Part shown: positions 3,556 through 24,366 of the stretch, in pieces
Layout: each line of letters opens with the position of its first letter
Position numbering within the stretch: the first letter of the stretch is position 1
NCBI GenBank assembly: GCA_963731665.1
Contig: CAVSWP010000008.1
Span: forward strand, 807,678 to 871,677
DNA length: 64,000 bases
DNA from: an uncultured Acidimicrobiales bacterium
GTDB lineage: Bacteria > Actinomycetota > Acidimicrobiia > Acidimicrobiales > UBA8190
Reading direction: 5' to 3'
Notes under the pieces: model-generated
What the model was told of the DNA's origin: nothing
The model's database searches: none
What the model saw: the letters and a program-made list of their open reading frames with translations, nothing else
Program-made: the position numbers and the translations under genes

Positions 3556-3931
<376 letters not shown>

Positions 3932-3952
3932 ACCTGGTAGGATATCGAGATA

Positions 3953-3972
3953 TCCCAACTACATCCCAACTA
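3953..3972 (+). promoter_or_regulatory. two tandem TCCCAACTA repeats; candidate integrase arm-type sites (left arm)
   Basis: TCCCAACTA occurs at 3953-3961 and 3964-3972. The same 9-mer occurs twice more at 16181-16200 near attR, in the same orientation. Confidence 0.4.
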
Positions 3973-3987
3973 CCGGGAGGGAATCCG

Positions 3988-5163
3988 ATGACCGGCACGC
4001 TGCGGGAGCTGCCCAAGTCCAAGAGCGGCGAGAGGCGGTGGGAGCTACGTGTTTTCGTGGGTCGCGGGCCCGCACCTGGGGGCGTGAACCCGAAGACGGG
4101 CAAGCCTCGCCAGGGCCCGGTGCTCCACCGCTCCAAGGTCGTCAAGGGCGTCGGCATTCGCGAAGCGCGACACGCGCTCACCGCTTTCGTGAGCGAGGTC
4201 GGAACCGAGAACAACACCGGGACGCGCGCCACCTTCTCGAAGCTCCTCGATGACTGGCTCGCCAGCCTGCCGCGGCTGGGCAAGGCCCGCTCCACCATCG
4301 AGCGCTACACCAACGATGTGAAGACGCACATCAAACCGGCGCTCGGGCTGATCCGACTCGACAAGCTGACAGCCCACGATCTCGACAATTACTTTGCGGC
4401 CCTCGAGGCCAAGGGTCTGGCGGCGTCGACCATCCGCCTCAATCACGCCATCGTTTCGGCGGCGCTGACCCAAGGCGTCAAGTGGAAGTGGATTCCGAGC
4501 AACCCCGCCAAGGACGCCAGCCTCGCTGACAAGGTCACGACGAAGACGAAGGCTCTGACCGTCGACCAGATCCGCACCCTCTACACCAAGGCGCTCGAGG
4601 ACGACGAGGACATGGCGGTGACCATCGTCCTGGCCGCGCTCACTGGCTGCAGGCGTGGGGAACTATGCGGGCTCAAGTGGGGCGACGTCGATTGGGAGAA
4701 AGCGAGTCTCACGGTGGAGCGCCAGTGGGTGCCGGGGAAGGGTGGCCAGCATCTCACGGCCACCACAAAGACGGGCAACGGCAGAACCGTGTTCGTGGGT
4801 GCACTGGGGCTCGAGCTCCTCAAGCGCTACCAAGCCGCCAAAACCGAGTTGGTGGGCCATGAACCGACTGGCTGGCTGCTGAGCGCCGATGGTGGGACCA
4901 CGCCCCTACGGGCCAAAGGTGTGAGTGCCTATGTTGTGGCTTTGGGGAAGAAGGTGAAGGTGCCCGTGGTCTTCCACACCCTTCGCCATTTTGCCGCCAC
5001 CGAGCTCGTCCACGCCGGGGTCGACCTGCCCACGGCCGCGCGACAGCTTGGCCACTCCCCCGCCGTGATGGCCGGAACCTACTTGCACACCTCCGACGAG
5101 CGCGGTGCGGCGGCCGGGGAACTGATCGCTGCGGTGATCGGGAAGGCGCTCGAGCCGAAATGA
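3988..5163 (+). CDS. tyrosine-type site-specific integrase
   Basis: ATG follows GGGAGGG. The C-terminal catalytic region is HTLRHFAATELVHAGVDLPTAARQLGHSPAVMAGTYLH (R..H-x-x-R..Y), and LRRGELCGLKWGDVD is also present. The track ORF start at 3868 would overlap rnpB, so it was trimmed. Confidence 0.9.
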   Translation: MTGTLRELPKSKSGERRWELRVFVGRGPAPGGVNPKTGKPRQGPVLHRSKVVKGVGIREARHALTAFVSEVGTENNTGTRATFSKLLDDWLASLPRLGKARSTIERYTNDVKTHIKPALGLIRLDKLTAHDLDNYFAALEAKGLAASTIRLNHAIVSAALTQGVKWKWIPSNPAKDASLADKVTTKTKALTVDQIRTLYTKALEDDEDMAVTIVLAALTGCRRGELCGLKWGDVDWEKASLTVERQWVPGKGGQHLTATTKTGNGRTVFVGALGLELLKRYQAAKTELVGHEPTGWLLSADGGTTPLRAKGVSAYVVALGKKVKVPVVFHTLRHFAATELVHAGVDLPTAARQLGHSPAVMAGTYLHTSDERGAAAGELIAAVIGKALEPK

Positions 5164-5181
5164 AGGATCGAAGCTAACTAA

Positions 5182-5757
5182 TTACGAGCGCCGGCCGCCA
5201 CCCCATGATGCGAACGACGACACACGCCTAAAGGACGTTCTTAGAACCTCGTCCCAGTCCTCCCGCGCTGGTTCGACCCCGTGTTCTTGGATGAGGAATC
5301 GCAGAACGTCTTCATAGAAGACGCGCCCCGTTGGGATGTGGAGTTTGCCCAGACCGTGAAACTCAGGGTCGGCACGCCGCAAGTGCAGATGGGGGTAGAT
5401 CGGTTCCACGGAGGCCCATTCCCACGAGTAGAGCTGCGGCTTCAGCGCGTCCGACTCACCAACGGTGTGGGCGTAGTAGTGAGTCGACGCCTTGCGCTCG
5501 GGTGACTCGAACCGCATGTCGTCGACATATGAGTATTCGAGAGTCGAGCGGAGATACAGCGTGGGCGCAGCAGTCCGAAGAGGGATGCTTGTGGGATTCG
5601 TGAAGGCGGCGAAAACGCCGGCACCTCGAGGGGTTATGAACCAGACCGCTTCCCTGCTCACAGTCGAAAGCGAACGGTTCAGGACCCCGAGGAGGCGACC
5701 CTTCGCCTGAGCGTCAGTGCGAGCAGGTTCCCGGTCAGCAGGTGTGTAATTCGACAC
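5182..5757 (-). CDS. hypothetical protein (int-proximal, antisense to the main element operon)
   Basis: Open frame with good coding character. The GTG at 5757 overlaps the upstream small gene by 23 nt. No motif recognised. Confidence 0.45.
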   Translation of the reverse strand: MSNYTPADREPARTDAQAKGRLLGVLNRSLSTVSREAVWFITPRGAGVFAAFTNPTSIPLRTAAPTLYLRSTLEYSYVDDMRFESPERKASTHYYAHTVGESDALKPQLYSWEWASVEPIYPHLHLRRADPEFHGLGKLHIPTGRVFYEDVLRFLIQEHGVEPAREDWDEVLRTSFRRVSSFASWGGGRRS

Positions 5758-5947
5758 CCGCCAGCAGGGCGATGTGGACGACCATCGGGTCCTCCTCCGG
5801 AAGTGCGTCAGCCGCGGCGCGACTCCGGAACTCCTCAATCGACATGTCTAGGTACTTCCGGGCCTGCTCATCGGCGAACCGTTCGGCCTCTTCCGGGGTC
5901 AGCTCGTCTCGACCCTCTTCTACCGCCTGAGAGAGTGCTGCGCTCAT
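5735..5947 (-). CDS. small acidic hypothetical protein (70 aa)
   Basis: ORF with an acidic helical composition (DELTPEEAERFADEQARKYLDMSIEEFRSRAA). It overlaps the downstream gene, which suggests an operon. Confidence 0.45.
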   Translation of the reverse strand: MSAALSQAVEEGRDELTPEEAERFADEQARKYLDMSIEEFRSRAAADALPEEDPMVVHIALLAGVELHTC

Positions 5948-6050
5948 GGCTCTTGCACCTCCTCCCTTCGACTCTAGCTAGGTGCTCATCCAATGGTACG
6001 GAGGGGGTGTAAGAAGGGGCTAGATAGTTGCATTGGACAAGAGATCCCTC

Positions 6051-6479
6051 TCACGGGAGACGAGCTCGCTTCCTGCCAGCACTTCCTGTCTCGGTTGCCA
6101 ACGCCTCGAGCTTGGCGGTTCCGTACTCCCGGTCAAAGGCGCGGCAGCGGGCACACCGGACTCGGAGCCGATCGGTGCTCGGACCGGTCGTGGTCGTCGC
6201 CGGTATCCCTGTCACCCAGGCCCCGTCGGGTAGCAGGAGCGGAACCGGTGGGCGCGTCATCGTGACAATCCGTCCGCACGGTGTGACGGTGGTCGCGAAG
6301 TAACGGGTATCGCGGGCGAATTCCAAGGCCAACGAGCCATCGGGCCCGTAGGTCGTTCCGACGCTCCGGATAAAGCGCACCGCAGGGTGCCCACATTTGG
6401 GGCAAGCCAATTGGACATAGTCGGGTGGCGGACGATTCCACGTGAGTCGAGGTTGGGCGTTGACAGGGAGGGCCACCAC
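6051..6479 (-). CDS. hypothetical protein with a possible zinc ribbon (CPKC ... CARC)
   Basis: 142-aa ORF with two CxxC pairs. No other recognisable motif. Confidence 0.4.
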   Translation of the reverse strand: MVALPVNAQPRLTWNRPPPDYVQLACPKCGHPAVRFIRSVGTTYGPDGSLALEFARDTRYFATTVTPCGRIVTMTRPPVPLLLPDGAWVTGIPATTTTGPSTDRLRVRCARCRAFDREYGTAKLEALATETGSAGRKRARLP

Positions 6480-6615
6480 CGGCCATCATAGACGCTGACA
6501 GACTTGTAACTACCGCGCTGCAACTCTTCTTGCAGTCAACGGTCGGAACGGCGGCCCTTCCGCAGCACCCGCCACAGGATCACCCGTAGCACGGTGGTCC
6601 CGAAGGGTGCTGGCC

Positions 6616-6813
6616 ATGCCGGAACTGCCAACCGATCGGCCCTGGACGCTTAACGAGGCTGCCTCCTACCTAAGAGAGAGCCCGCGCACGACCCGGCGGC
6701 GAGCTGCCCGCGGGGACCTCGAGGTAATCCGACCACCTGGGTCCCGAAAGATGCTGTTCGACCCTGCCTCCGTACGTCGGTTCCTTGACGATGCCCGGGT
6801 GGTGGCGCCGTGA
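6616..6813 (+). CDS. excisionase-family / MerR-like HTH DNA-binding protein
   Basis: LNEAASYLRESPRTTRRRAARGDLEVIRPPGSRKMLFDPASVRRFL matches the HTH_17/excisionase pattern. GAAGGG lies upstream of the ATG. Confidence 0.65.
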   Translation: MPELPTDRPWTLNEAASYLRESPRTTRRRAARGDLEVIRPPGSRKMLFDPASVRRFLDDARVVAP

Positions 6814-6995
6814 GCATCACGCCGCTGCCTGGCTGGCGGACACTCCCTCAACTCGCTCAAGCGGTTGGCATTTCCGAGTGGAAGCTTCGCGAGGAAGCCA
6901 AGGCCGGTCGGCTCCGGGTGCGTCGCGTTGGCAGATGCGCCCGGGTGCTCGACGAGGACGCCGCCGCGTGGATGCGCGGGCAGGCGACACCGTGA
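6810..6995 (+). CDS. excisionase-family HTH DNA-binding protein (second copy)
   Basis: LPQLAQAVGISEWKLREEAKAGRLRVRRVGRCARVLDEDAAAWM. The GTG start overlaps the previous stop. Confidence 0.65.
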   Translation: MSITPLPGWRTLPQLAQAVGISEWKLREEAKAGRLRVRRVGRCARVLDEDAAAWMRGQATP

Positions 6996-7942
6996 GCGCC
7001 GACCTCGAGGACCGCATCGGCCCCATTGTCGAGCGCGTGCTGATTGTGGAGTTGCTCGCCGAACGCGGCCACGAACCAACCAAGCGCCAGGGAATGACGT
7101 GGACCTATCACTGTCCACTGCCCGGTCACCTTGACACGAATCCGTCGTTTACCGTGAAGGACGCCAAGTGGCGATGCTGGTCAATCTGCGGGTGCGGTGG
7201 GGACGTGGTTGACCTCGTTATGGCCCTCGACGGCATCAACAGCGCCACTGCCATCGAACAACTGGCTGCGCGGATCGGGCTCGGGCGCGAACCGCGCCCA
7301 CAGGCCCGTGGTCTGAGTCCGGAGAAGGAAAGCGCACTACTTGAGAGTTTCACCGCTAACCGCCAATGGGAGCCCGACGCGGTCGCCGGCGCTGGGCTAT
7401 CGGTCGTGCTGGACGATTTCGGTCGCCCAAGGATTAGATTTCCCTATCGCATCAAGGGCCGCAAGGTCTGGCACCAGGATCGGGCTATCGGATCGGCGGA
7501 GCCGAAATGGCTTGCTCCAAAGGACTCAAGGCGTTTGCTCTACAACGCCGACTCGATCACGCTGGCGGGTCAACGCGGCGGGTGCTGGCTCCTTGAGGGA
7601 CCGTGCGACGTGCTCGCACTTCAGAGCACCTACGAGGCGCCCGCGGCGTTGGGCATTCCAGGAGTTGAAGGTTTTCGCCCCGATTGGGTGGCCGCATTCG
7701 CCGATCTGCAAGGCGTTTTCCTGGTGGCCGACAACGATCCCGCGGGCGAAAAGCTACGGGCGCAGCTAGACGCCCTGTTCGCTCCTTTGACAACGCCGCT
7801 GCTCCATGTGCGGGTTCCCGAGTCGTATAACGACCTCGACGAATGGCGCCGCGGTGCTGGCGCGGATAACGATCAGTTCGACGACGAGCTGCTGGCCGCT
7901 GTCATCGTCGCACAGGCTGAACGGGATCGGATCGACCGATGA
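6992..7942 (+). CDS. DNA primase (CHC2 zinc finger + Toprim)
   Basis: CHC2 finger YHCPLPGHLDTNPSFTVKDAKWRCWSICGCGGDVVDL, plus Toprim-like LLEGPCDVLAL and FLVADNDPAGE. The GTG start overlaps the previous stop, so the track start at 6785 was trimmed. Confidence 0.8.
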   Translation: MSADLEDRIGPIVERVLIVELLAERGHEPTKRQGMTWTYHCPLPGHLDTNPSFTVKDAKWRCWSICGCGGDVVDLVMALDGINSATAIEQLAARIGLGREPRPQARGLSPEKESALLESFTANRQWEPDAVAGAGLSVVLDDFGRPRIRFPYRIKGRKVWHQDRAIGSAEPKWLAPKDSRRLLYNADSITLAGQRGGCWLLEGPCDVLALQSTYEAPAALGIPGVEGFRPDWVAAFADLQGVFLVADNDPAGEKLRAQLDALFAPLTTPLLHVRVPESYNDLDEWRRGAGADNDQFDDELLAAVIVAQAERDRIDR

Positions 7943-8922
7943 GTGAACCGCGGCTAGATGTGCTCGGCGCGGCACCTGTGGGGATGAATGGGCACACCGA
8001 TGAGACTTTCGGACCCATCATCACGGCGGCCGACATCGGCATCATGCCGATTGACTGGCCATCGTTCTGGGCGCAGGAGGTGCCCGAAGAGGACTACGTG
8101 ATCTCGCCGATTGTGCCGGCCGGTCGGCAAACCGGGATCTACAGCGTCGCCAAGACGGGAAAGAGTCTGCTCGCGCTCGACATCAGCGCGGCAGGCGCCA
8201 CAGGACGCTCCATCCTCGGGCAACCACCATCGGCACCGATAGATGTGGTGTACCTCGACCTTGAGATGACCGAGGCCGACTTCCGCGAACGCCTGCCGGA
8301 CCTCGGTTATGGCCCGGACGACGACCTGACGCGGCTGCACTACTTCCAGCTTCCGGCGTTGCCTCCACTGGACACGGACCTCGGTGGCGAGACCGTCCTC
8401 TCGATCTGCACGGAGCGCACGGCCAGCGTCCTGATCGTCGACACCATGGCTCGAGCCGTGCGCGGCGAGGAGAATTCCGCCGACACGTATCGCAACTTCT
8501 ACGCGAGCACTGGGCGTCGGCTCAAGGCCGCAGGGATTGCCCTGCTGCGGCTCGACCACCAGGGCAAGGACCCCGCTCTCGGCCAGCGAGGCTCATCGGC
8601 GAAGGTCGACGACGTGGACGTGGTTTTCAAGATGACCACCGTTGACCGCACCCGTATCCAGCTCACCCGCACCCACAGCCGCGTGCCGTGGGTGCCCGCC
8701 GAGATCGCCATAGATCGTCTCGAGGAGCCAACCCTGCGGCACGTCCTGGCCGGTGATTCATGGCCCGCTGGGACCTCGGACGTGGCGCTGCTGCTCGACG
8801 AGCTCGACGTGGCACTCGACGCCACGGTGGTTGCGGCCGCATCGGCCCTCAGGACCGCTGGCACGGGCAAGCGCAAGGCGTTGGTGATGGCAGCGCTCAA
8901 GTTCAGGAGGACACGTCCATGA
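7939..8922 (+). CDS. RecA-like P-loop ATPase (RepA / DnaB-C-terminal-like, AAA_25 type)
   Basis: Walker A SVAKTGKSLL and Walker B VLIVDTMARAV, plus LLRLDHQGKD. Translationally coupled to the primase. Confidence 0.7.
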   Translation: MSEPRLDVLGAAPVGMNGHTDETFGPIITAADIGIMPIDWPSFWAQEVPEEDYVISPIVPAGRQTGIYSVAKTGKSLLALDISAAGATGRSILGQPPSAPIDVVYLDLEMTEADFRERLPDLGYGPDDDLTRLHYFQLPALPPLDTDLGGETVLSICTERTASVLIVDTMARAVRGEENSADTYRNFYASTGRRLKAAGIALLRLDHQGKDPALGQRGSSAKVDDVDVVFKMTTVDRTRIQLTRTHSRVPWVPAEIAIDRLEEPTLRHVLAGDSWPAGTSDVALLLDELDVALDATVVAAASALRTAGTGKRKALVMAALKFRRTRP

Positions 8923-8932
8923 GGCCCGAAAA

Positions 8933-9097
8933 GGTTCCCGGAACCGTCGCCGCGGGGTCGGTGGGAACCGGACAGGGAACTGGTTCCCATGGGGCCAAGA
9001 GACTGCCCGAAGCCCTGCCTAGGTCGGTTCCCGGAACCGTTGGGAACCGTCGTCGGGGCACCACGGGAACCGGTACCCCGTCTTTAGACGGGAACCG
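8933..9097. repeat. iteron-like cluster of GGGAACCG / CGGTTCCC motifs; candidate replication origin
   Basis: Ten half-sites lie within 165 bp. Palindromic pairs are at 8933-8946, 8975-8988 and 9025-9039; single sites are at 8963, 9042, 9065 and 9090. Confidence 0.5.
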
Positions 9098-9158
9098 GGC
9101 CCGGAGCCGAGAAACGCTCGAGGACAAGGGTCAGAGACTCTTATCCACCGGCGCGGTG

Positions 9159-9356
9159 ATGGTGCTGTTCGCCGACGAGCTTCACATCGTCGCTCGGGTC
9201 AGAGGCGACGCTGGTGTCTACGACACCGAGTGGAGTCGATGGTCGGGGTGGTCGTGTACGTGTCCCAACCTCCACCGCTGTAGCCACCAGGCGGCGGTCG
9301 CCTCGGTCACCACAAAGCCCCTGCTTCATGCCGTCGTGGGTGGTGGTGCCCCGTGA
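9159..9356 (+). CDS. SWIM zinc-finger protein (alternative in-frame start at 8919)
   Basis: WSCTCPNLHRCSHQAAV fits the SWIM CxCxnCxH signature. The upstream in-frame part is low-complexity sequence encoded by the repeat cluster. Confidence 0.55.
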   Translation: MVLFADELHIVARVRGDAGVYDTEWSRWSGWSCTCPNLHRCSHQAAVASVTTKPLLHAVVGGGAP

Positions 9357-9670
9357 GGCCGCCCCGGTCCTGTTCATGTGGAGGTGTCCACCCCGCCGGC
9401 CAGCGCTGTCCCGCCAGCGTGGCCCGACGCGGGACCACTAGAGAGCGCATGGGCCCGGGCTGGGAGTCGATCAGTAGGCGCGTGATCGCTCGAGACGGCG
9501 GTCAGTGCCAACTACGGCGTCCGGGGTGCGCGGGAGTCGCCGACACGGTCGACCACCTCGTCAGTAGAGCTACGGCGCGGAGGCAGGGCTGGGCTGACGG
9601 TGACATCAACGCCGAGTTCAACCTTGTCGCGGCCTGTCGGCACTGCAACGCGAGCAAGGGGAGCCGATGA
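9353..9670 (+). CDS. HNH endonuclease
   Basis: DGGQCQLRRPGCAGVADTVDHLV ... NLVAACRHCNASKG (HNH motif). Confidence 0.85.
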   Translation: MRPPRSCSCGGVHPAGQRCPASVARRGTTRERMGPGWESISRRVIARDGGQCQLRRPGCAGVADTVDHLVSRATARRQGWADGDINAEFNLVAACRHCNASKGSR

Positions 9671-9788
9671 CAGTGAGTGGTCGGATACGCACCGGGGGAG
9701 GGCAAAATGGGGGAAAGCCCAGGTCAGGACCCCCAACAGGCTCCCCAGCACCTGCGCGGGTTTCGGCCGTTTCAGGAGGGGGTTGGCG

Positions 9789-10313
9789 ATGACCAACACC
9801 CGCGGGCCGTTGCCAAAGGCATCGTCCCGGCGCTCACGGGCACGCCAGGCGACCGGTACAGAGGTGGTCTTCGCCCATGCGGTCACGCGTCACCCCACGC
9901 CAGCACCGGAAGCACCAGCCGACCTCGGTGGGCCTGGGATGGTCGTCTGGTCGGACGCCTGGGCGCTCCCCTGGACCGCTGCGGCTGACCGTGGGGCGAT
10001 CCTCAACCTCTGTCGGCTCGAGGACGAACGGGCACTCCTTGCCGCCGCCGTGGAGAGCCACGGCGCCGTGCTCGAGAAGGTCCTGACGAGTGCCAGAGGT
10101 GACGTCGTCGGGACCGAGCTCTACCCGAACCCTGCACACCGGGAGTTACGGCGCATCGACGCCGCTCTCCTGGCGCTACGTGACCGGCTGGGGTTGAGTC
10201 CGCTCTACAGGGCTCGCCTCGGTCTCGCCTTGGTCGAACTGGAGAAGCAGGAGAGCGCCGCCGTTGTCCGCCTGCGGACCTTGTACCGGTCCTATGGGGA
10301 GGAGGGCCAGTGA
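9789..10313 (+). CDS. terminase small subunit (P27-like)
   Basis: Positioned between HNH and TerL. N-terminal basic segment, then ...YPNPAHRELRRIDAALLALRDRLGLSPLYRARL, typical of P27-family TerS. AGGAGGGGG lies upstream of the ATG. Confidence 0.6.
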   Translation: MTNTRGPLPKASSRRSRARQATGTEVVFAHAVTRHPTPAPEAPADLGGPGMVVWSDAWALPWTAAADRGAILNLCRLEDERALLAAAVESHGAVLEKVLTSARGDVVGTELYPNPAHRELRRIDAALLALRDRLGLSPLYRARLGLALVELEKQESAAVVRLRTLYRSYGEEGQ

Positions 10314-11866
10314 ACGCCGTCCGCTCCATTCCCGATACCGTGCCGCCCCCGGATCGCACCCTCGGCTGGGCCGTTCTCGATTGGACCGCCGCGTGGCTGT
10401 TGCAACCGGACGGCCCCACGGCCGGCGAGCCGTGGGAGTTCACCCGGGAGCAGGCGCGCTGGGTCTTGAGGTGGTACCGGATCGACGCCAGGGGGCGCTT
10501 CGCCTATCGGCGGGGCACGCTGAGGCGCTGTAAGGGTTGGGGCAAGAATCCCGTTTTAGACATCGTGGCCGCTGTGGAGTTGTGCGGACCGTGCCGGTTC
10601 GACGGCTGGGACGGCACAGGCCACCCCGTGGTCATCCCTCACCCCGCGCCGTGGATTCAGATCGCCGCCGTCTCCCAGGACCAGACCAAAAACTCCATGA
10701 CGCTGTTTCCGGCGCTGTTCTCTGACGCCGCCGTCAAAGAGTTTGACATCGACATTGGGAAGACAGTCGTTTATGCCCGCAACGGTGCCGGTCAGATCGA
10801 GTCGGTCACCAGCTCGCCTCGCGCGCTCGAGGGCAAGCGCCCCTCGTTGGTCGTGCTCGACGAGTCCCAGCACTGGCTCCCGTCGAATGACGGGTGGGAG
10901 ATGGCTGAGTCCATTCGCCGCAACGCGGCCAAGGCCCGAGAGGGGGCTGCCCGCACCCTTGAGATAACCAACGCGCATCTCCCCGGTGAGGGTTCGGTGG
11001 CAGAGGCCACGTTTGAGACGTGGAGGGCGGCCGGGGGGGCGGTACCGGGACTCCTATACGACAGCCTCGAGGCGCCACCAGTCGTGGACCTTAGTGACCT
11101 CGACGCGCTTCGCGAGGCCCTGACCTTGGCGCGGGGCGACTCCACCTGGCTGGACATTGACCGGCTGGTGGCTGAGATCCAGGACCCGACCACGCCCGCG
11201 TCGACGGCGCGGAGGTTCTATCTAAATCAGGTCGTGGCCAGCGGTGCGGAGCAGTGGATCGACGCCGCGTTATGGGACGACCTCGCGCGCCCAGATCGTG
11301 AGGTCCCCGACGGCGCGCCCATAATCGCCGCGTTTGATGGGTCTTTCAATAACGATTCCACGGCCGTCGTCGGCATTCTCGTTGCTGAAACGCCCCACGT
11401 TTTCGTCATCGGACACTGGCAGCCCGCGGTGCCCGGTGATGAGGTGGACATCCTCGACGTTGAGGAAGCTCTGCGCCAGGCGGCACGGCGTTACAAGGTG
11501 TTGGAGCTGTGCGCGGATCCGTTTCGTTGGGCGAGAAGCTTGCAAATCTTGTTCGACGACGGCGTCCCGGTGTGCAACTTCCCGCAAAATGCGACCCGCA
11601 TGTCGCCAGCCACCGCTCGCTTCGCCGCCACCGTGGCCACAAGAGGCCTCACACACTCCGGCGACGTGAACCTTAGGACTCACGTTCTAAACGCCGTGGT
11701 GGTGAGCGATACCCGCGGCCGGCGCATCGTCAAGGACTCAAAGAAATCACCGCGCAGGATCGACCTCGCCGTCGCCGCGCTCATGGGCCTGGACAGATTC
11801 GCACAAGGTGAAGACCCGCAGAGGGAACTACTACGGCAACGGAATAGGAGAGCAAATGTCGGCTGA
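10310..11866 (+). CDS. terminase large subunit
   Basis: 518-aa ORF with an ATPase Walker B-like SLVVLDESQHW and a C-terminal nuclease half (AAFDGSFNNDSTAVV ... DLAVAALM). Gene order is HNH-TerS-TerL. Confidence 0.8.
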   Translation: MNAVRSIPDTVPPPDRTLGWAVLDWTAAWLLQPDGPTAGEPWEFTREQARWVLRWYRIDARGRFAYRRGTLRRCKGWGKNPVLDIVAAVELCGPCRFDGWDGTGHPVVIPHPAPWIQIAAVSQDQTKNSMTLFPALFSDAAVKEFDIDIGKTVVYARNGAGQIESVTSSPRALEGKRPSLVVLDESQHWLPSNDGWEMAESIRRNAAKAREGAARTLEITNAHLPGEGSVAEATFETWRAAGGAVPGLLYDSLEAPPVVDLSDLDALREALTLARGDSTWLDIDRLVAEIQDPTTPASTARRFYLNQVVASGAEQWIDAALWDDLARPDREVPDGAPIIAAFDGSFNNDSTAVVGILVAETPHVFVIGHWQPAVPGDEVDILDVEEALRQAARRYKVLELCADPFRWARSLQILFDDGVPVCNFPQNATRMSPATARFAATVATRGLTHSGDVNLRTHVLNAVVVSDTRGRRIVKDSKKSPRRIDLAVAALMGLDRFAQGEDPQRELLRQRNRRANVG

Positions 11867-12056
11867 ATACGACGCCAAAAGCGGTGCGGTACAAAAGAAG
11901 CGCCGCGGACCGATGTATATCAACTTGAACGCCGATATCGACGCCGAGTTTGCCCGGTACGAGGGGACCGAAGCGACGCCGACGGAGGAGCGCTGGGTAA
12001 CCGAGCCGGTCCCCGTGGCTTGGCTCGAGGAACTACTCAATCGCCCCCGTGACTGA
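11856..12056 (+). CDS. hypothetical protein
   Basis: 66-aa ORF after GGAATAGGAG. No motif recognised. Confidence 0.4.
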   Translation: MSAEYDAKSGAVQKKRRGPMYINLNADIDAEFARYEGTEATPTEERWVTEPVPVAWLEELLNRPRD

Positions 12057-12342
12057 GATACCTCACGACTGGTGGTACGCGTCAGGCGTCGACGTCGTCG
12101 GCGCCACCAGCCTGCTGCCAGCCGACGAGTTGCGCGACCTGGTGGCGAATCTGAGGAGCTCCATCGGGCGCCTACCTTCTCGAGACGACGACGACGTGGC
12201 CGTGTTGCGTGCCGGATTCCTCGCGCTCGCCGAGTGTGTCGCGAATGACACCGACCCTACCGAGGCCGCGAGGGATTATGACGCCGCCGTGATCCGGGCG
12301 ATCGCCGATCGCAGGGCCAAGCGGCGCGCCCGGACGGTCTGA
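12049..12342 (+). CDS. hypothetical protein
   Basis: 97-aa ORF that overlaps its neighbour (operon-like). Confidence 0.45.
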   Translation: MTEIPHDWWYASGVDVVGATSLLPADELRDLVANLRSSIGRLPSRDDDDVAVLRAGFLALAECVANDTDPTEAARDYDAAVIRAIADRRAKRRARTV

Positions 12343-12344
12343 CC

Positions 12345-12788
12345 ATGCTTGAGTGGAGGCGACCGCCTGACTTCGCCCGCGTTGGCGAGGAGACCGTCAT
12401 CGTGCACGACTCGGGCGCGATTACCGTCCCGGCCCACATTGCCCATGAGTGGGCCAAAGTTTTGCGGCCGGCCATGAAAGACGCCGAGGACGCCGGCAGG
12501 CACGTGTTCACCGAGGCGGCCTGGGACGCCGCCGGGGCACTCGCCGCGTGCGCTCTGCGCTTCGAGGACCTAAGCGCGTCAACCACTCCGGTAGACGGCC
12601 CTTCCGATGGGCGGTTGACATCTGACACGGTGAGAACCGTGGAGATCACAATCGCCGAATATGCCAAACGCACGGGCCGAGCTCGTCAGAGCGTCTGGCG
12701 CAGCGTCGCCAAGCGCAAGTCCCTGCCCGGCAGGTTCGACCCCGACCGCGGCCTGTACGTGGTCACAGTGCCAGAGGACGTGGCATGA
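12345..12788 (+). CDS. hypothetical protein with a possible C-terminal HTH
   Basis: 147-aa ORF. The segment ITIAEYAKRTGRARQSVWRSVAKRKSL looks like a helix-turn-helix. Confidence 0.45.
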   Translation: MLEWRRPPDFARVGEETVIVHDSGAITVPAHIAHEWAKVLRPAMKDAEDAGRHVFTEAAWDAAGALAACALRFEDLSASTTPVDGPSDGRLTSDTVRTVEITIAEYAKRTGRARQSVWRSVAKRKSLPGRFDPDRGLYVVTVPEDVA

Positions 12789-12955
12789 CCGACAAGGTCC
12801 ACAAACTGACCGTGGAGCAACGGCTGGACCGCCTGGAGGAGCTTGTCGTCGGCGTCGCCTTCGGGCTTGCTCAGGCGAGCGGCGCTGCCTGTGTTTACCC
12901 GGTCCGAGAGCCGCTCATAGCCGTCCGGGAAGACATCGAGGCTCGCAATGCCTGA
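12785..12955 (+). CDS. small hypothetical protein (56 aa, below the track cut-off)
   Basis: Read directly from the DNA. The ATG overlaps the previous stop (ATGA), and its stop overlaps the next start at 12948. No internal stops. Confidence 0.3.
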   Translation: MTDKVHKLTVEQRLDRLEELVVGVAFGLAQASGAACVYPVREPLIAVREDIEARNA

Positions 12956-13442
12956 CGAAGCCGACGACATTCTCAGGCGGATTCAAGCGCTCGAGGGCGG
13001 CCGACGATTCCCCTCTCTGCCGCGAGACGACGCGTGGCCGGCGGTGAACCATCACCCCGGACCTCCCCGACCAGAAACGGACTGGGAGAAGCGACAGCGG
13101 CAGATTCGCGAGCGGGAACAGGCCGTCAGGGACGCATACAAGGCCGATTGCGACGCCCGGGAGGCTGCCAACCTCGCCGAGTGGAACGCTCGACGCGACG
13201 CCCAAGCCTCTGAACGCGGCATGGCAAGGAGTCGGCTGGCGGCGGTGGTCAACGAGATTCGGGCCATAGAGGAAGCGCTGCAACCCAAAGTGGCCGAGAA
13301 GCGGCGACTCCTAGAAGTCATTCATCGTTTCGATGACGCCAAGATGCCGAAGGTGGAGCATCCACCGCCGCCGCGCCCAGGTTCGCCGCTCGACGGCAGG
13401 GGCGGCTATTTGACGCCGTACGGAGTCGACCGAGCGCAGTGA
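12948..13442 (+). CDS. hypothetical coiled-coil protein
   Basis: 164-aa ORF with charged heptad-like composition. Confidence 0.45.
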   Translation: MPDEADDILRRIQALEGGRRFPSLPRDDAWPAVNHHPGPPRPETDWEKRQRQIREREQAVRDAYKADCDAREAANLAEWNARRDAQASERGMARSRLAAVVNEIRAIEEALQPKVAEKRRLLEVIHRFDDAKMPKVEHPPPPRPGSPLDGRGGYLTPYGVDRAQ

Positions 13443-13457
13443 TAAAGGACGAAGACA

Positions 13458-13802
13458 ATGAGCGATGAGGTTCCCGAGCCCAGGTATGTCTGGCTTTACA
13501 GGGTCAACTACAACCGACAGCCCTCCTACGAAGAGATGTGCGTCGAGCACGAACACCTTGGTCAGCGGGCGCAGGACCTATTTGCCCAGGGGCTTGACTC
13601 TGAGAAACGGGGTGACAGTCGCACGCACCTCGCCGCTCTGAGGTCCGAGTATGACGCCTTGTTCGCTGACCTCAAGGAGAGCAAGCGCTACCTCGAGGCC
13701 TACAACGAACGGTGGGCAGAACAGCGGGGCCAGTACATCAAAGAACGCGACCGCCGGTGGCGGCGAATGCTGATTGCCGCCTACGGCCATGCCCCAAGTT
13801 GA
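13458..13802 (+). CDS. hypothetical protein
   Basis: 114-aa ORF after AAAGGACGAAG. Confidence 0.45.
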   Translation: MSDEVPEPRYVWLYRVNYNRQPSYEEMCVEHEHLGQRAQDLFAQGLDSEKRGDSRTHLAALRSEYDALFADLKESKRYLEAYNERWAEQRGQYIKERDRRWRRMLIAAYGHAPS

Positions 13803-14337
13803 ACCGCCGCGTCCGCTCGAGGTGGCGAGTTTCCACGAAGGGGGACATGCGGTTCTCGGGCACCGCCTCGGTTATGCCGTTCGCAGCCTTACGTTGCGCC
13901 CGCCGCAGACATCGTTCGCGAAGCCTATTGAAGACCCCATGGCCGACCTTGCCGTCAGTGTTGCCGGTCGCTGCGCCGAGCTAATCGCGTTCCCGGAGCT
14001 GGGCGACCGGCCCAACCCGAACCGCGACGACCTGGCGTGGACTGACGCTGACGCCTGGCGCTGCACCGCCGACCTCGGCGCTATGGGCGCACTGATCGCG
14101 GACGTCACGGTGCGTGTGACCGAGTGGCTCATAACAGATTGGCGTCTCGTGGAGCGCATTGCTTACGCGCTGCTCATGGCCCGGCCCGAACGTCTCAACG
14201 CCGATGACATCCGTCGGCTTGTTCCTTGTCGGCGCGTACCCGCGAGGGCTTTCTTACCTTTCACCTCGCGGGACGTGTCGTCAGGAGCGGTGGGCGGCCC
14301 GGGGCAGTCTCGACCCCGGGCCGCCCAGGTGGCGTAA
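13789..14337 (+). CDS. stand-alone FtsH-like (M41) zinc metallopeptidase domain protein
   Basis: SFHEGGHAVLGHRLGY (HEXXH), VAGRCAELIAF (compare FtsH GGRAAEELIF) and a C-terminal helical region resembling the M41 domain. No AAA+ module. Confidence 0.55.
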   Translation: MPQVEPPRPLEVASFHEGGHAVLGHRLGYAVRSLTLRPPQTSFAKPIEDPMADLAVSVAGRCAELIAFPELGDRPNPNRDDLAWTDADAWRCTADLGAMGALIADVTVRVTEWLITDWRLVERIAYALLMARPERLNADDIRRLVPCRRVPARAFLPFTSRDVSSGAVGGPGQSRPRAAQVA

Positions 14338-14418
14338 ACCGATGGCAAGGGCACTCGCCGAGGACTTCGCCGGGTTTATCGGGTCAGGCCCAGCCCTCGT
14401 CGGGGCCGGAAGCAGGGC

Positions 14419-15075
14419 GTGGCTGTCGTGAGGAAAGCCATGGGACTGAAGGACGTATGCGGGATACGTTGGGTCGATGGAGGCCTTAGACCCGTGACCC
14501 TCTTGGCGGTCGTCGAGAGTGGCCCTGTGATGCTCATGGCGGCCGATAGCCAGGAGCTTCACGATAACTACGAGGCGGGCTTCAGGGTCACGGTCGACAA
14601 GCTGGTTCAAATGGGCGACGAGAAGATCGTTTGGGGCTACTGGGGCCACACCGAGGCTGGGGCCAAGTTCGCCCACCGATTGGCCCAGGAATCCTTTGGC
14701 GACTGGGACGCCCTCGACGCGTGGGTAAGCCCGCAGAGGCTTGCTCTCAACGGCGAACACACTCCATTCGGAGTGCTGGTCGCTGGCTGGCTCGGGGGGG
14801 TTCGGAGGGCGATGGCATACGGTGACGGCGTTCTCTCGGGGACCGACTTCATGTTTTGCGGGAACGGGTGCCTTGTCGGCCAGGTGGCGTGGGAGGTGAC
14901 AACGGGACTCGACGTCCCCCTGGACGAGCGTTTCAAGCTGGTCATGACAAAGACCATCGAGGGTGGCCAACCGACCCTCGGCTTCCCCCTCAACATGTGG
15001 GAGATCACGGAGCATGAGCGGCCGAGGCGTATCCGAGGAACAGACCAGCCCAAGCACGTCAGCCTCGGCGGCTAG
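14419..15075 (+). CDS. proteasome-beta / HslV-like Ntn-hydrolase fold protein (tentative)
   Basis: RPV-TLLAVVESGPVMLMAADSQ mirrors the proteasome beta pattern G-TTIVAV..GVVLAADSR (Thr1, Asp17). VDKLVQMGDEKIVWGYWG places a Lys near position 33-35. Confidence 0.4.
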   Translation: MAVVRKAMGLKDVCGIRWVDGGLRPVTLLAVVESGPVMLMAADSQELHDNYEAGFRVTVDKLVQMGDEKIVWGYWGHTEAGAKFAHRLAQESFGDWDALDAWVSPQRLALNGEHTPFGVLVAGWLGGVRRAMAYGDGVLSGTDFMFCGNGCLVGQVAWEVTTGLDVPLDERFKLVMTKTIEGGQPTLGFPLNMWEITEHERPRRIRGTDQPKHVSLGG

Positions 15076-15135
15076 GGAGGCTTTGCTCATCTAGGCTTTC
15101 TTCGATGGCGTCCGGCCTCGTGGCTCCGTAAGTCC

Positions 15136-15621
15136 GTGCATGAGCGCCGAGGATTCGGAATCGCACTCAGCACCACACTTGTTGGCGTTGGATTTGGAGC
15201 CTTTCTCGCCTACTACATCGCTATGGCAGCTTTGGCCCCGAGCCGCCGCGGCGATTATGGGTGGGTACCGGTTCTGGCTCTTGCCATGGTGGGTGTGGCC
15301 TTTGCCGTGGGCGTGGCGGTCTTCGTCAGCCTTTACAGAGAGTCAACCCGACGGCGTGCTCTGGGAGCATTCGCCAAGCGTGGGCGCGAGCTGGGAGTGA
15401 ACTACCAAAATCAGGTCGGTGAACGCCAAGCGGTCCAGGATTGGATAGACGAAACGAGGACCTGGCTGGACACGAACCTCCCCGACTATGCTGAACTTTT
15501 CTCAACCCCGGTTCTTGGCCGAATGCCCCCACAGGACCTCAATAACGTCGTCAGTGATGAGGTTCGAGCTGTGATCCTCAGTCACTTGCAGCGGCTAGCA
15601 GAAATCATGATCAAGCTATGA
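15136..15621 (+). CDS. membrane protein (2 TM helices + cytoplasmic domain)
   Basis: Two hydrophobic helices (LSTTLVGVGFGAFLAYYIAMAAL and VPVLALAMVGVAFAVGVAVFVSL). Confidence 0.5.
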   Translation: MHERRGFGIALSTTLVGVGFGAFLAYYIAMAALAPSRRGDYGWVPVLALAMVGVAFAVGVAVFVSLYRESTRRRALGAFAKRGRELGVNYQNQVGERQAVQDWIDETRTWLDTNLPDYAELFSTPVLGRMPPQDLNNVVSDEVRAVILSHLQRLAEIMIKL

Positions 15622-15694
15622 CTTTCCTAGACCAAGTTATCCGGCTCGCCACGCATATCCGCGCTTTGCTCCCCGGTACTGCCCAGGATGCAAC

Positions 15695-16150
15695 CTAGAG
15701 GGGCAGCCTGACAGCGTTGATCTCCTCGATGGCATCGTCGACAAGCTCGAGAATGGATTGCAGTGCCGCCTCGTCGATGGGGAAAGCCTCCACGGGGCCG
15801 CGGCCTCGGTCCTTCCGAACCCAGCGAAAGGGACGCTGGGCGTTGCCGATCGTGGCCGGTCGAGCGTGCAAGATGTCGTTGCGAGGCCCCGCAAGCCGGG
15901 TTAGCCACTTAGCGCAGGCGGCCAGGAAGGCTTGTGCACGCGCGTCGGAAACACCCGCGAGGTGCTGACGGATCTCGGCACCGAGCCCTCCTGTGGTGCG
16001 CCATGCCAGGTTGTCGATAGACAATTCAGGAGGGAGGCCCGGTAGGCGCGCAAGGTCGCCTAGGAGTCCACCTTCGATGTAGCTGATGGCATAAGCCGCT
16101 CGGCCGATCTGAAGGACGAAATCGTCCTCGGGGAATGGGACTCGGGACAT
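15695..16150 (-). CDS. hypothetical protein (attR-proximal, opposite strand)
   Basis: 151-aa ORF with good coding character. No motif recognised. Confidence 0.45.
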   Translation of the reverse strand: MSRVPFPEDDFVLQIGRAAYAISYIEGGLLGDLARLPGLPPELSIDNLAWRTTGGLGAEIRQHLAGVSDARAQAFLAACAKWLTRLAGPRNDILHARPATIGNAQRPFRWVRKDRGRGPVEAFPIDEAALQSILELVDDAIEEINAVRLPL

Positions 16151-16180
16151 GGCCGCACAGGTTAGCCAGGAGCATCTTCA

Positions 16181-16200
16181 TCCCAACTATGTCCCAACTA
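16181..16200 (+). promoter_or_regulatory. two TCCCAACTA repeats; candidate integrase arm-type sites (right arm)
   Basis: TCCCAACTA occurs at 16181-16189 and 16192-16200, matching the pair at 3953-3972. Confidence 0.4.
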
Positions 16201-16303
16201 TCGCCGCGGTTTCGTCGTGCTCGACTCCCACAACTGTCGGCATTTCCCCTGGTCAGCGATGTGATACGCGCTTTGACACTCCCCCACTCGCCTACCTGGT
16301 AGT

Positions 16304-16331
16304 ACCCCGCCTACAGGCCGACTCACCGTCA
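16304..16331. repeat. attR core (displaced original rnpB 3' end)
   Basis: Identical 28-mer to 3904-3931. Confidence 0.8.
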
Positions 16332-17012
16332 CGAATCACTCTGAGCAGGAACTTCACACCAGGTAGCGGTTCGTCTGACACAGATCTGACACACGAGCCA
16401 GCGTGGAGATATCCCCGTGCGACTCGCCTCGGCCCCCGCGCGTGTCGTGGGACGACAAACGTGAGCGGCCCGAAGCAGTCAGAGACCGAAGGCGCCCGGC
16501 TTGTAGCTACCGCATTTCGGATTGGTACAGGCGACCTCGGGGGGACGAGGGAGTCGACCCTCCTCTTCGACGCGAACATCAACGTTATCCACTCGGGCCG
16601 GGGACCCTCACCGCTTACATCGTCCGTTGGGTTTCACTTGAAGTTCACCTCCTTGATTCCCAAGGTATGCGCCATTTCGGCGGGTCCGACGGACCCCTGT
16701 TCCAGAGCGAGTGGGAGTACCGGGAGCAAGTCCCGAGCCTTCAATGCTCGTGTCGAAATCTAAGGTGTTTCAAATCGAACCGGAGAACGATCGGGCGCAA
16801 ATATCGGACGGTCCAGGACACGTCGAGCCCGCGGCTGTGATCCGGCATGTGCGAGCAGTCCGAGGCCATCACTGGACATCCGATAGCGGATGCGCTACGC
16901 AACGGCCAACCGTGATGGCCCCATGGGGTTGTCCTGTACCCGGCAGGGATCGGATGGTCACCATTAGGAAATCACTCAGAGAAAGGGCGGTGGTACCGAT
17001 CGGGTTGTGTCG

Positions 17013-20000: not shown

Positions 20001-20330
20001 GCCGAAGTAGTCGTCGTCCTCTTTGCTGACCTCGCCACCGCTCAGCCCGACCCGCAACCCAACCGAGTGCTCCCGGTCTCGATTGTCCCGCTCGACGCCC
20101 TGTTGCATCACCACGGCGCACGCCAGGGCAGCCGCCGCCGAACCGAAGACCACCATGAGCCCATCACCCAAGTTCTTCACCTCGGTCCCGCCTGATTCGG
20201 CGATGGCCTGGCGCAGGATCGAGAAGTGCTCCCGGCGCACCTCGTCGGCGGCCTCGGCCGACAGGCGCTGCGACAACTCCGTAGAGCCCACCTGGTCGGT
20301 GAACAGGATCGTCGCGCTCTCGGTACCCAA
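17013..20330 (-). CDS. class III adenylate/guanylate cyclase - STAND (AAA_16) NTPase - TPR protein
   Basis: N-terminal cyclase motifs ILFTDQVGSTEL and KNLGDGLMVVFGS. Walker A GEAGMGKTTL and Walker B VVIVLDDLQWAD. Long helical TPR-like C-terminus. No C-terminal LuxR-type HTH is visible. Confidence 0.85.
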   Translation of the reverse strand: MGTESATILFTDQVGSTELSQRLSAEAADEVRREHFSILRQAIAESGGTEVKNLGDGLMVVFGSAAAALACAVVMQQGVERDNRDREHSVGLRVGLSGGEVSKEDDDYFGDPVVEAARLCATCESGQVLATDVVRAMAGRRSRHECRPLGERTLKGLSDSVETVEVLWEPLGGADTETSIPLPGRLAVRPTIGVVGREAETQALTDATKRVAGSEGREVLLVSGEAGMGKTTLVAEAARAAYDAGACVLFGHCEEDLATPYQLFAEALGHYVTQAPEDRLRAHVSEHGSELARLVPALASRIPDLPPSKATDSDTERYLLFAAVVGLLVRASAHQLVVIVLDDLQWADKGSLLLFRHLAAAEQAMRVLILGTYRDSELSQFHPLLDTLAALHRQHGVSHVELVGLDDSGVVSFLETAAGHTLDDAGVDLAHAVYRETDGNPFFVSEVLRHLSETGAIHQDATGRWTADDSLEQMALPDSVRVVIGARVGRLGQDAGRVLSMAAVIGRDFDLDLLARATKTSEDDLLDILDAAAAAALVREVADTSRYAFAHALIQHTLYEDLGHNRRARGHRQVAEALEDLCGDRPGNRVGELARHWFRATQPIDLAKAISYSRQAGDAALHALAPAEALRYYAQALDLYPQATDPDPVLGIDLAIGLGTAQRQTGDPAFRDTLLGASRRAADLGDTERLVAAALANDRGVSVGAGAIDADKVAVLELAVDRLSADSPDRALVLATLCSELAFGSPLERRQALADEALGMAQSSGDDAIIVRVLNHINVPLGVPSLLEQSLAWSADALVRAERVGDPVQLFWAAEWRAEAAARAGDIDELDRCLEIRGSLIEQLDQPTLNYFETLTRTVRAQIAGDTDRAEHLATEAHQIGTDSGEPDAETIFGGQFMIVSMQRGTMGELVRLIEQAATDNPRLPVFTAALAAAHAEADRTADARRLLAAFAAADFDLPLDQAWTTGMVCYADAAIECRDPNYAGPLFDRLTPWADQLTVLGSITTSGPVSHFLGGLAAVLGRYNEADTYFAQSEAFSDRVGAKFFATRTDLLWGRMLAERRTPGDTERARELLTRAQSAAAVNGYGNVERRASWALQLLDDNQR

Positions 20331-24306: not shown

Positions 24307-24366
24307 CACAGGGAAAACACTGGGTACGCATAGCCCCGAGTATCGGGCGGCTCCCAGCCGTTGTCG

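Follow-up and report, generated by a model that had tools for sequence, protein, structure and literature searches.

The subject of this analysis is a 12.4-kb insertion in the chromosome of an uncultured Acidimicrobiales bacterium (contig CAVSWP010000008.1, positions 807,678 to 871,677; this 64-kb stretch is called the window below). As a sequence-only reading of this DNA had stated, the insertion is bounded by a perfect 28-bp direct repeat (3904-3931 and 16304-16331). The repeat stretches to 31 nt with one mismatch, and the 28-mer core was found exactly twice in the window, for a chance expectation of 0. From the left end, the insertion encodes a tyrosine integrase, two excisionase-type helix-turn-helix (HTH) proteins, a primase, a RecA-like ATPase, a small SWIM-type protein, an HNH endonuclease, the small and large terminase subunits (TerS and TerL) and a series of small open reading frames (ORFs). 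This gene content had also been listed by the sequence-only reading, and Pfam and PHROGs confirm it except for the SWIM-type protein, for which the match is weak. We propose that the insertion is probably a phage satellite that brings its own packaging motor. Coordinates are those of the window, and genes lie on the plus strand unless stated otherwise.

Insertion site and integration module

The left repeat is the 3' end of the host gene rnpB, the integration target, because the Rfam match to class A RNase P RNA (RF00010, RNaseP_bact_a, 228.8 bits) is full-length and covers 3561-3929. Insertion therefore regenerates rnpB, the 3' end of which is remade by the att core of the element. No tRNA and no RNA family other than RNase P RNA was found by the Rfam and tRNA scans. 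In 120 or more contigs from soil metagenomes, rnpB terminates with the same 28-mer. The attB site was reconstructed by linking the flanks on either side through a single core, and was aligned to related metagenome contigs (designated here by L and a number). It aligns without break over the junction in L212/L213 (89.7% over 300 nt) and in L197 (88.4% over 303 nt), and these contigs also bear the upstream xseA gene (78–79% amino acid identity). They are thus empty sites, and the unoccupied rnpB that an integration event leads one to expect does exist in relatives. In these empty sites, the flank that follows the attR core (16304-16331) directly continues rnpB. The attL core (3904-3931) is its perfect copy.

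Both cores are accompanied by short repeats. In the P' arm (3932-3972), a core-adjacent ACCTGGTAG stands with two 11-bp-spaced TCCCAACTA repeats (TRF period 11). The P arm (16181-16302) likewise has two 11-bp-spaced TCCCAACTA repeats at 16181-16200 and, at 16294-16302, a ACCTGGTAG next to the core. The four copies of TCCCAACTA in the window all lie at the element ends (0.09 expected), and ACCTGGTAG is found solely beside the two cores. These repeats are presumed to be integrase binding sites, and their paired occurrence beside both cores is the arm-site layout of a functional attP. The predicted junctions are CCTACCTGGTAGT-core-ACCTGGTAGGATATCG for attP and GTGAACAGA-core-CGAATCACTC for attB. 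The integrase itself (391 residues, 3988-5163 within an ORF at 3868-5163) matches Pfam Phage_integrase (1e-22), with SAM-like N-terminal domains, and phrog_1 (1e-63). Its start is probably the ATG at 3988, with GGGAGGG upstream as ribosome-binding site (RBS).

The exact element is present in a second assembly, contig L290, where right arm, attR and flank are nearly identical to those of the window, i.e. the same element at the same site. In other contigs, an integrase 49–64% identical to that of the window follows directly after the same rnpB core, with similar paired repeats (ATCCCTAC...) and different cargo. The int/att module is therefore common to several rnpB-site elements, and rnpB looks like a hot spot of integration in these actinobacteria. 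Six contigs with rnpB-core elements (L184, L199, L202, L221, L233 and L198) show no terminase in the sequence at hand. One of them, L198, has two rnpB cores 6.66 kb apart around a different small island.

Replication genes and control region

Two overlapping genes encode HTH_17 proteins of the excisionase/AlpA type (6607-6813 and 6810-6995; Pfam HTH_17, E=1.9e-6 and 7e-3). A DNA primase with a CHC2 zinc finger and a Toprim domain comes next (6992-7942; Pfam Zn_ribbon_DnaG 7.1e-10, Toprim_2 4e-3; phrog_47 6.3e-20); its ORF spans 6785-7942, and the start is probably at 6992. The following gene (7939-8922) encodes an AAA_25 ATPase of the RepA/DnaB-like RecA fold (Pfam AAA_25 7.5e-21; PHROG helicase/primase-polymerase families at ~1e-9 to 1e-10), presumed to be the replicative helicase or initiator. 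Immediately downstream lies a candidate replication origin (ori) of 164 bp (8933-9096), with eight GGGAAC(C/T) iteron-like sites that include two perfect copies of the palindromic GGTTCCCGGAACCGT. The Poisson probability of this cluster is ~1e-14, no other 176-bp segment has more than three sites, and the codon-position GC of 8933-9096 indicates no clear coding phase. In phage-inducible chromosomal islands (PICIs), such as the Staphylococcus aureus pathogenicity islands (SaPIs), the ori sits immediately 3' of the rep genes. By analogy, the position of the iteron cluster after the rep genes suggests that it is the ori. In the related element L001, a tandem 48-nt repeat rich in the GGAACC hexamer of the window iterons (TCCGGAACCCGCGGAACCGG..., L001:4142-4252) is found at the 3' end of a DUF3631 replication gene; the L001 replication protein is unrelated to the primase/AAA_25 pair of the window.

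Leftward genes lie on the minus strand between the integrase and the excisionase-type genes (5182-6479): a 218-residue ORF (5182-5838), a 70-residue ORF (5735-5947) and a gene for a 142-residue double zinc-ribbon protein (6051-6479). They gave no significant Pfam, PHROG, PADLOC, NCBIfam or PDB match, only weak Zn-ribbon matches, and no Stl-like repressor was recognised among them. These genes occupy the place of the PICI master repressor or sensor, and from this position they may have a regulatory role. The divergent intergenic region at 6480-6606 could be the control region; a promoter-like site (TTGACA-18-CATCAT, 10/12 matches) begins at 6460. Repeats of the form ACGGTGGTC(G/C)CGAAG / GGTCCCGAA(G/A)G occur in and around it (6286-6300, 6591-6612 and 6740-6756) and are candidate operator sites. 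Terminator and promoter scans gave matches no better than background.

Packaging genes and search for virion genes

Downstream of the iterons, a small gene of probably ~65 codons (9159-9356) encodes a SWIM-type zinc-finger protein; the Pfam SWIM match is under the cut-off (E=0.0075), and the translation has a CxC...CxH motif. The next gene (9353-9670) encodes an HNH endonuclease of the packaging-associated type (Pfam HNH 5.8e-5; phrog_333 1.1e-14; 59% identity to its L001 homolog). TerS (174 residues, 9789-10313; Pfam Terminase_4 1.3e-6) is 73% identical over 174 residues to the TerS of L001. Its true start is at 9789 and not at 9600, as indicated by the end-to-end homology with L001 and by the GGAGGGGG RBS that precedes the ATG. 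TerL (518 residues, 10310-11866; phrog_9 2.7e-78; TerL_nuclease) is intact and has all 71 invariant columns of a 26-sequence alignment. The gap of 9671-9788 between HNH and TerS is the predicted cos position, because HNH, cos and terS-terL are contiguous in this order in HK97-type cos phages, as Kala et al. 2014 are cited in PMC10085698. The ratio of nonsynonymous to synonymous substitution rates (dN/dS) between the window element and L001, two elements that both have neither portal nor capsid gene, is 0.11 (TerL), 0.14 (TerS) and 0.29 (HNH); because dS in this comparison approaches saturation, the ratios are approximate, yet clearly below 1. The packaging genes are under purifying selection.

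The sequence-only reading had recognised no capsid, tail or lysis motif after TerL, where the largest ORF has 218 codons. This holds in all searches that were made. No post-TerL ORF has a Pfam or PHROGs match to a portal, capsid, protease, tail or lysis protein. Proteins encoded near TerL homologs in 165 related loci, taken from reference genomes, IMG/VR and metagenomes, were then clustered and converted into 110 profile hidden Markov models (HMMs); the cluster representatives verified with Pfam comprise SPP1_portal, Phage_portal (HK97), Phage_capsid (two clusters), P22-type coat, Peptidase_S78, VG15 and tail tube. When the six-frame translation of 3800-16400, taken from stop to stop, was searched at E<=1, these profiles detected TerL, TerS, HNH and the integrase only, and the same library found no structural gene anywhere in the 64-kb window. 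Searches by tblastn with the S78 proteins of L001 and L004 found no trace of an S78 remnant in the window. No reading frame yielded any decayed piece of a structural gene with these profiles, which derive from the closest phage relatives. In the relatives, head proteins are large: portals have 410–530 residues and capsid proteins ~300–500.

This bears on the possibility that the insertion is a degenerating remnant of a capsid-forming island or small prophage, immobile, which has lost its portal, capsid and protease and in which the terminase is not yet eroded. Such a remnant would be expected to leave traces, and the six-frame search, which addressed the decayed fragments that the earlier reading had named as a point to check, revealed no structural pseudogene. 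The ORFs of the element are all intact, tightly packed and often overlapping at start and stop; the att cores are perfect, with arm sites paired at both ends; and TerL, TerS and HNH are kept under purifying selection between two elements that have neither portal nor capsid gene. We consider decay unlikely as an explanation, and return below to what speaks for it in the comparison with related elements.

Right arm of the element

Ten ORFs of 56–218 codons follow TerL. Their base composition is of the coding type (GC at third codon positions 0.61–0.81 versus 0.40–0.55 at second positions), as expected for real genes in a genome of 65–70% GC. The longest of them encodes a protein of only ~193 residues, and no frame is open over more than 218 codons. 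The first six ORFs (11808-13802) are small and translationally coupled, with the same coding pattern. They comprise the ORF directly after TerL (11808/11856-12056, conserved in L001), 12049-12342, a 147-residue protein with a C-terminal HTH (12345-12788, also conserved in L001), 12785-12955, and two ORFs for helical, charged proteins (12948-13442 and 13458-13802). None of the six has a Pfam, PHROG, PADLOC, NCBIfam or PDB match. They are candidates for helper-interaction or capsid-size factors.

The next gene (13789-14337, a 187-residue ORF) encodes a stand-alone protein with an FtsH/M41-like metallopeptidase domain and a HEGGH motif. Against the FtsH structures 2dhr/4eiw in the PDB it gave E=0.017, with HExxH and a downstream AGRxAE aligned, and against Pfam M41 E=0.073. 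Homologs are found in the sister elements L166 and L009, and that of L166 matches Pfam M41 with E=0.0011. The assignment as an FtsH/M41-like peptidase is marginal but consistent. The public annotation gives a shorter product for this gene (P0121, 132 residues) that omits the HEGGH motif, and P0123 (193 residues) for the HslV-like gene described below. We prefer the longer form of the M41-like protein from 13789 (ORF 13774-14337) because of its homology to FtsH and to the L166 protein. At the end of this gene, before the HslV-like gene, a perfect 14-nt inverted repeat (14291-14327; TGGGCGGCCCGGGG / CCCCGGGCCGCCCA, 9-nt loop) may be a transcriptional or regulatory hairpin that parts the conserved operon from distal cargo genes.

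The largest post-TerL gene (14494-15075, within the 218-codon ORF 14419-15075) encodes, according to profile comparison, an HslV/proteasome-beta-like Ntn threonine peptidase of 193 residues. Two close homologs of the ORF were found in a word-indexed database and 51 cluster representatives by exhaustive HMMER search. The protein begins with MTLLAV, since most homologs start at query residue 26–27. In the alignment, Thr2 is near-invariant and Asp18 and Lys36 are invariant. From its first residue on, the family profile aligns with HslV 5ji3 (E=2.9e-5), with proteasome beta subunits (including beta2) and with BPH; 3 of 38 family members match Pfam Proteasome (best 3.7e-7). The closest homologs (65–70% identity) are on two short contigs, L168 and L169, beside an IS1595 transposase and a conserved 140-residue gene, with no recognisable satellite. 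The HslV-like peptidase is probably mobile cargo and not a satellite core gene. Further downstream are a 161-residue membrane protein with two hydrophobic N-terminal segments (15136-15621; sub-threshold matches to MHYT, 0.0028, and to a holin family, 0.2) and, on the minus strand, a 151-residue ORF with a coding GC pattern and no matches (15695-16150). The remaining right-arm orphans gave nothing significant in Pfam, PHROGs, NCBIfam or PDB. AlphaFold2 models were unusable for both ORFs tried, with a pLDDT of 36.7 for the 218-residue ORF (3-sequence alignment) and 41.6 for the 187-residue ORF (single sequence).

That seven right-arm ORFs have no detectable homologs, together with these failed models, could mean that the insertion is a self-sufficient miniature virus, or an element of the capsid-forming PICI (cfPICI) type, with a capsid and portal too divergent to be recognised. 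This is very improbable. No post-TerL ORF or open stretch exceeds 218 codons, in all relatives HK97-fold capsids have at least 300 and portals at least 400 residues, and the two largest ORFs are peptidase-like. The profile search of the right arm for portal and major capsid proteins, which the sequence-only reading had regarded as decisive against a satellite if positive, remained without match, as did that for protease and tail proteins.

The peptidases also raise the question of defence. The insertion could be an island that excises and replicates on infection and in which terminase, HNH and peptidases sabotage the packaging or maturation of the infecting phage, in the manner of abortive infection and with little or no transfer of its own. 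Satellites commonly act as anti-phage systems (discussion of PMC10085698), the two stand-alone peptidases (M41-like and HslV-like) and the membrane protein could target helper proteins, and no capsid-size or head-tail gene is recognised. However, PADLOC found no known defence protein in the element, with no match among either the right-arm or the leftward ORFs. A matched set of TerS, TerL and HNH under selection, in a family of conserved size, is more simply explained by self-packaging. Moreover, known satellites can combine interference with transfer. A role confined to defence thus seems quite unlikely. With S78 in sister elements and the M41-like and HslV-like proteins here, one may speculate that head or helper proteins are repeatedly the target of proteolysis.

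Related elements and their history

More than 1500 TerL homologs were found; the best one from a cultured phage is 45% identical (Streptomyces phage Attoomi). TerLs of at most 48% identity are followed by a portal (~470 residues), a head protein of ~255–280 residues, a capsid protein (~320 residues) and tail genes, and belong, with the gene order TerL-portal-protease-MCP-tail, to ordinary prophages of Streptomyces and related genera. According to gene-size maps, many TerLs of 50–76% identity lie in small elements. Typically they begin with an integrase, which is followed by a replication protein (of the AAA_25, DUF3631 or primase kind), in some cases by HNH, and then by TerS, TerL, some four small ORFs, a Peptidase_S78 of 220–430 residues and further small ORFs. 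They adjoin tRNA genes (Arg, Gln, Cys, Val), have direct repeats of their own, and occur in metagenome-assembled genomes of Solirubrobacteraceae (Thermoleophilia) and Acidimicrobiales (Acidimicrobiia). The six-frame profile scan of the small-element group found S78 as the only head gene in 11 of 14, and no head gene in L007 or L106; L007 measures 12.9 kb between perfect 48-nt direct repeats. In L155, a portal match lies ~9 kb from TerL. L091 encodes a 491-residue Phage_capsid protein and S78, followed by an integrase. A 437-residue ORF of L007 was considered as a portal and rejected, being a sigma-70 region 4/HTH protein. L009 (TerL 50% identical) carries at 14873-16777 a 634-residue PhageMin_Tail (tape-measure-like) protein and an S78 match, with no portal or capsid. 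Judged from these sequences, the post-TerL module of the family is very plastic.

It was first assumed that all TerLs of at least 50% identity belong to small elements; this was rejected, as the IMG/VR scan shows phage-type members. These phage-type contigs, with TerLs 51–57% identical to that of the window, have an HK97 portal, and most also have S78 of the same cluster and a capsid protein of the same family of ~498 residues. In a neighbour-joining tree, which is rough, the small-element TerLs form subclades interleaved with HK97-type phages. The simplest history suggested by these sequences would be that the small elements descend from phages of the HK97 type and lost their head genes step by step, with L007 and the window element at the end of the series. 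The HK97-type phages of this TerL clade are natural candidate helpers.

The related elements also show what speaks for a decaying remnant. The graded series from phages (portal, S78 and major capsid protein) through L091 (major capsid protein and S78) and most small elements (S78) to the window (none) resembles progressive loss, the right arm of the window consists mostly of orphans with no homologs in sister elements, and the exact element is known from two near-identical assemblies only. On the other hand, L007 is an independent element with no head gene, perfect direct repeats and similar length, and a conserved size is not expected from decay. The att-defined lengths are 12.40 kb for the window, 12.48 for L001, 12.94 for L007, 12.95 for L006, 11.18 for L008, 14.31 for L167 and ~16 for L166, and outside the packaging genes the gene content largely differs between elements. 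A size so tightly conserved, at ~12.4–13 kb, despite divergent content would follow from a constraint on packaging. Of the phage-type relatives, two are on contigs of 40.3 and 40.7 kb, which may be incomplete. That helper genomes of 40 kb would fit three satellite units per head is only a suggestion.

Comparison with known satellites

In SatelliteFinder (de Sousa et al. 2023, PMC10085698), five components form the PICI core: integrase, regulator (AlpA/MerR/Stl), primase-replicase, capsid-morphogenesis gene and TerS. A PICI is accepted with four of these five components (Type B), HNH and a serine protease being 'occasionally' present, and tail, holin, portal, head-tail adaptor and connector genes are forbidden (PMC10085698). 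TerL and head-tail genes set cfPICIs apart from PICIs, and a cfPICI needs at least 9 of 11 core components (PMC10085698). The window element has four of the five PICI core components if the two HTH_17 proteins, with their excisionase/AlpA-like fold, are counted as the regulator, and no forbidden one was detected. The fifth, a capsid-morphogenesis gene, is missing in the sense that Pfam, PHROGs and the custom profiles gave no capsid-related match. The view of the sequence-only reading that the element does not fit any known class was thus overstated: with most of the PICI core and a cfPICI-type HNH and TerL, it is the stripped-down end of a graded family. The window element would work like a PICI and sits between PICI and cfPICI.

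The likeness to PICIs (SaPIs, EcCICFT073) covers the general plan: an island of ~12 kb whose one end encodes a tyrosine integrase, followed by leftward genes and, diverging from these, a rightward operon with AlpA/Xis-type HTH, primase-replicase, ori after rep, TerS and accessory genes, and no tail, holin, portal or connector genes. In contrast to them, the window element has a full-length TerL and HNH and no recognisable capsid-morphogenesis gene, and it resides at rnpB in an uncultured high-GC soil actinobacterium; it is likened to PICIs by gene content and not by sequence kinship. With cfPICIs (Alqurainy et al., bioRxiv 10.1101/2022.09.08.507074) it shares HNH, TerS and TerL downstream of int-alpA-primase, and like them it would depend on a helper for other virion parts. 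However, cfPICIs make their own major capsid protein and prohead protease, besides portal, head-tail adaptor and connector, and take only tails from the helper. All five are absent from the window element, which has 6 of the 11 core components.

Among actinobacterial elements, phiRv1/phiRv2 and candidate PICIs of Mycobacterium are also ~10 kb long, with an integrase, primase-type replication and terminase, and were long held too small for phages (Hendrix 1999; PMC10654092). They are defined by an integrase together with a major capsid protein (with a prohead protease, PMC10654092), and the window element has neither head gene; a closer analogue of phiRv1/phiRv2 is the sister element L091 with its capsid protein, S78 and integrase. 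The Streptomyces satellites MulchRoom and MiniFlayer (PMC10690885) have TerS, TerL and HNH as well. Unlike the window element, they encode portal, capsid, scaffold and adaptor, have no primase/replicase, and have genomes of low GC with direct terminal repeats, i.e. the opposite division of labour. P4 and cos-type SaPIs (SaPIbov5) are likewise satellites of ~11–14 kb, about one third of the helper genome, that are cos-packaged in helper heads. They carry only a helper-type cos, use the helper terminase and remodel capsid size with Sid/Psu or Ccm, whereas the window element supplies the whole terminase. Of the P4 core, which comprises Psu, Sid, Delta, Epsilon and an alpha primase-helicase, no Psu, Sid or Delta family, and likewise no Ccm, appeared in the Pfam/PHROG results for any ORF, where the similarity is limited to generic primase and AlpA-like matches. 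A reading as an actinomycete integrative and conjugative element, a class marked by an FtsK/SpoIIIE-type Tra translocase and a Rep of its own type, was rejected, as no ORF has an FtsK_SpoIIIE-type Tra match.

Chromosomal surroundings

The flanks are ordinary chromosome, with P450, XseB and XseA genes on the left and, on the right, a cyclase-STAND ATPase, a mycothiol-dependent MDMPI and an IS30-like transposase. The STAND gene (17013-20330, minus strand) is just outside attR and encodes a protein of 1105 residues with an adenylate/guanylate cyclase and an AAA_16 STAND ATPase; its N-terminus gave weak PADLOC matches to PycC (Pycsar cyclase). In the comparison with L290, the contig of a 95%-identical strain, 361 of 373 substitutions over 9.2 kb fall inside this gene (80, 60 and 221 by codon position), and its flanks, like the element, are nearly identical. 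From this pattern, the STAND gene is a hypervariable or recombined allele. The IS30-like transposase (HTH_38 and rve) is at 22981-24234. The end of the L290 contig matches short repeats at ~24243-24342, 25183-25236 and 28653-28707, which suggests insertion sequence ends or a repeat-rich region that breaks assemblies.

Proposed nature and life cycle

We propose, with a probability of roughly 0.6, that the cassette is an intact, site-specifically integrated, PICI-like helper-dependent satellite with its own terminase holoenzyme. The empty sites, the intact att architecture, the iteron cluster and the purifying selection on packaging genes argue for a functional element. The sequence-only reading had already proposed a helper-dependent satellite. 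Gene content, insertion and selection speak for a satellite; the dependence on a helper is deduced from gene content, so that this proposal is supported in part.

In its life cycle, the element would reside at the 3' end of rnpB until a helper infects the cell or is induced and derepresses the rightward operon; the most plausible helper is a siphovirus of the HK97 type, akin to the phages of its TerL clade. The integrase and the HTH_17 Xis/AlpA proteins would then excise the element via the 28-bp cores, and the primase and the AAA_25 helicase would replicate it from the iterons at 8933-9096. Its own HNH-TerS-TerL would recognise and cut a satellite-specific cos in the HNH-TerS gap. This motor would dock on procapsids made by the helper and containing its portal, and package satellite DNA into them; the helper would supply head, connectors, tails and lysis functions to complete and release the particles. 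The satellite would thus swap the whole packaging motor of the helper and not the specificity subunit alone. The variable right arm, with its small ORFs, M41-like, HslV-like and membrane proteins, could serve helper interference, capsid adaptation or cargo functions. In this scheme, we infer the induction by a helper, the position of cos, the docking on the portal of the helper and what the right-arm genes do, whereas the insertion at a defined att site, the gene content, the lack of head and tail genes, the family context, the conserved size and the selection on the packaging genes are observed.

Several points weigh against this proposal. To our knowledge, and in the literature searched, a satellite-encoded TerL working on a foreign portal has never been demonstrated experimentally. 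Neither an excised form nor an attP form was found, IMG/VR viral contigs contain no match to the att core, and none of the related whole contigs is circular or has terminal repeats. As mentioned above, just two near-identical assemblies hold the exact element. No helper phage was found in the 64-kb window and none was identified. No cos was identified either, and the HNH-TerS gap, aligned with L001 and L002, is only patchily conserved. Finally, the seven right-arm ORFs that have no homology-based assignment could include unrecognisable structural or size-determining proteins.

A wider and more tentative proposal, to which we give somewhat less than an even chance, is that the window element belongs to an undescribed family of 'motor-swapping' satellites in soil Actinomycetota (Thermoleophilia and Acidimicrobiia). 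These would derive from HK97-type phages that lost portal, capsid and finally protease and kept HNH-TerS-TerL, would dock on the helper portal, and would have a size of ~12.5 kb as a fixed fraction of helper capsid capacity. The literature searched, the coverage of which is incomplete, contains no satellite with TerS, TerL and HNH but no head genes and none in Thermoleophilia; this is no more than absence of evidence.

Known satellites redirect packaging in three ways, namely by a helper-type cos or pac site, by TerS or a TerS-binding protein alone, or by capsids of their own. If our proposal is true, the element would represent an intermediate strategy, in which a whole terminase motor is supplied with no head proteins; this implies cross-recognition between the satellite TerL and the helper portal. 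We know of no satellite-helper system in the abundant uncultured soil Actinomycetota, and capsid-based or SatelliteFinder-style searches would miss or misclassify such elements. The graded series of phages, elements with capsid and protease, elements with protease only and elements with none is a natural data set on the origin of satellites and on which head functions are dispensable.

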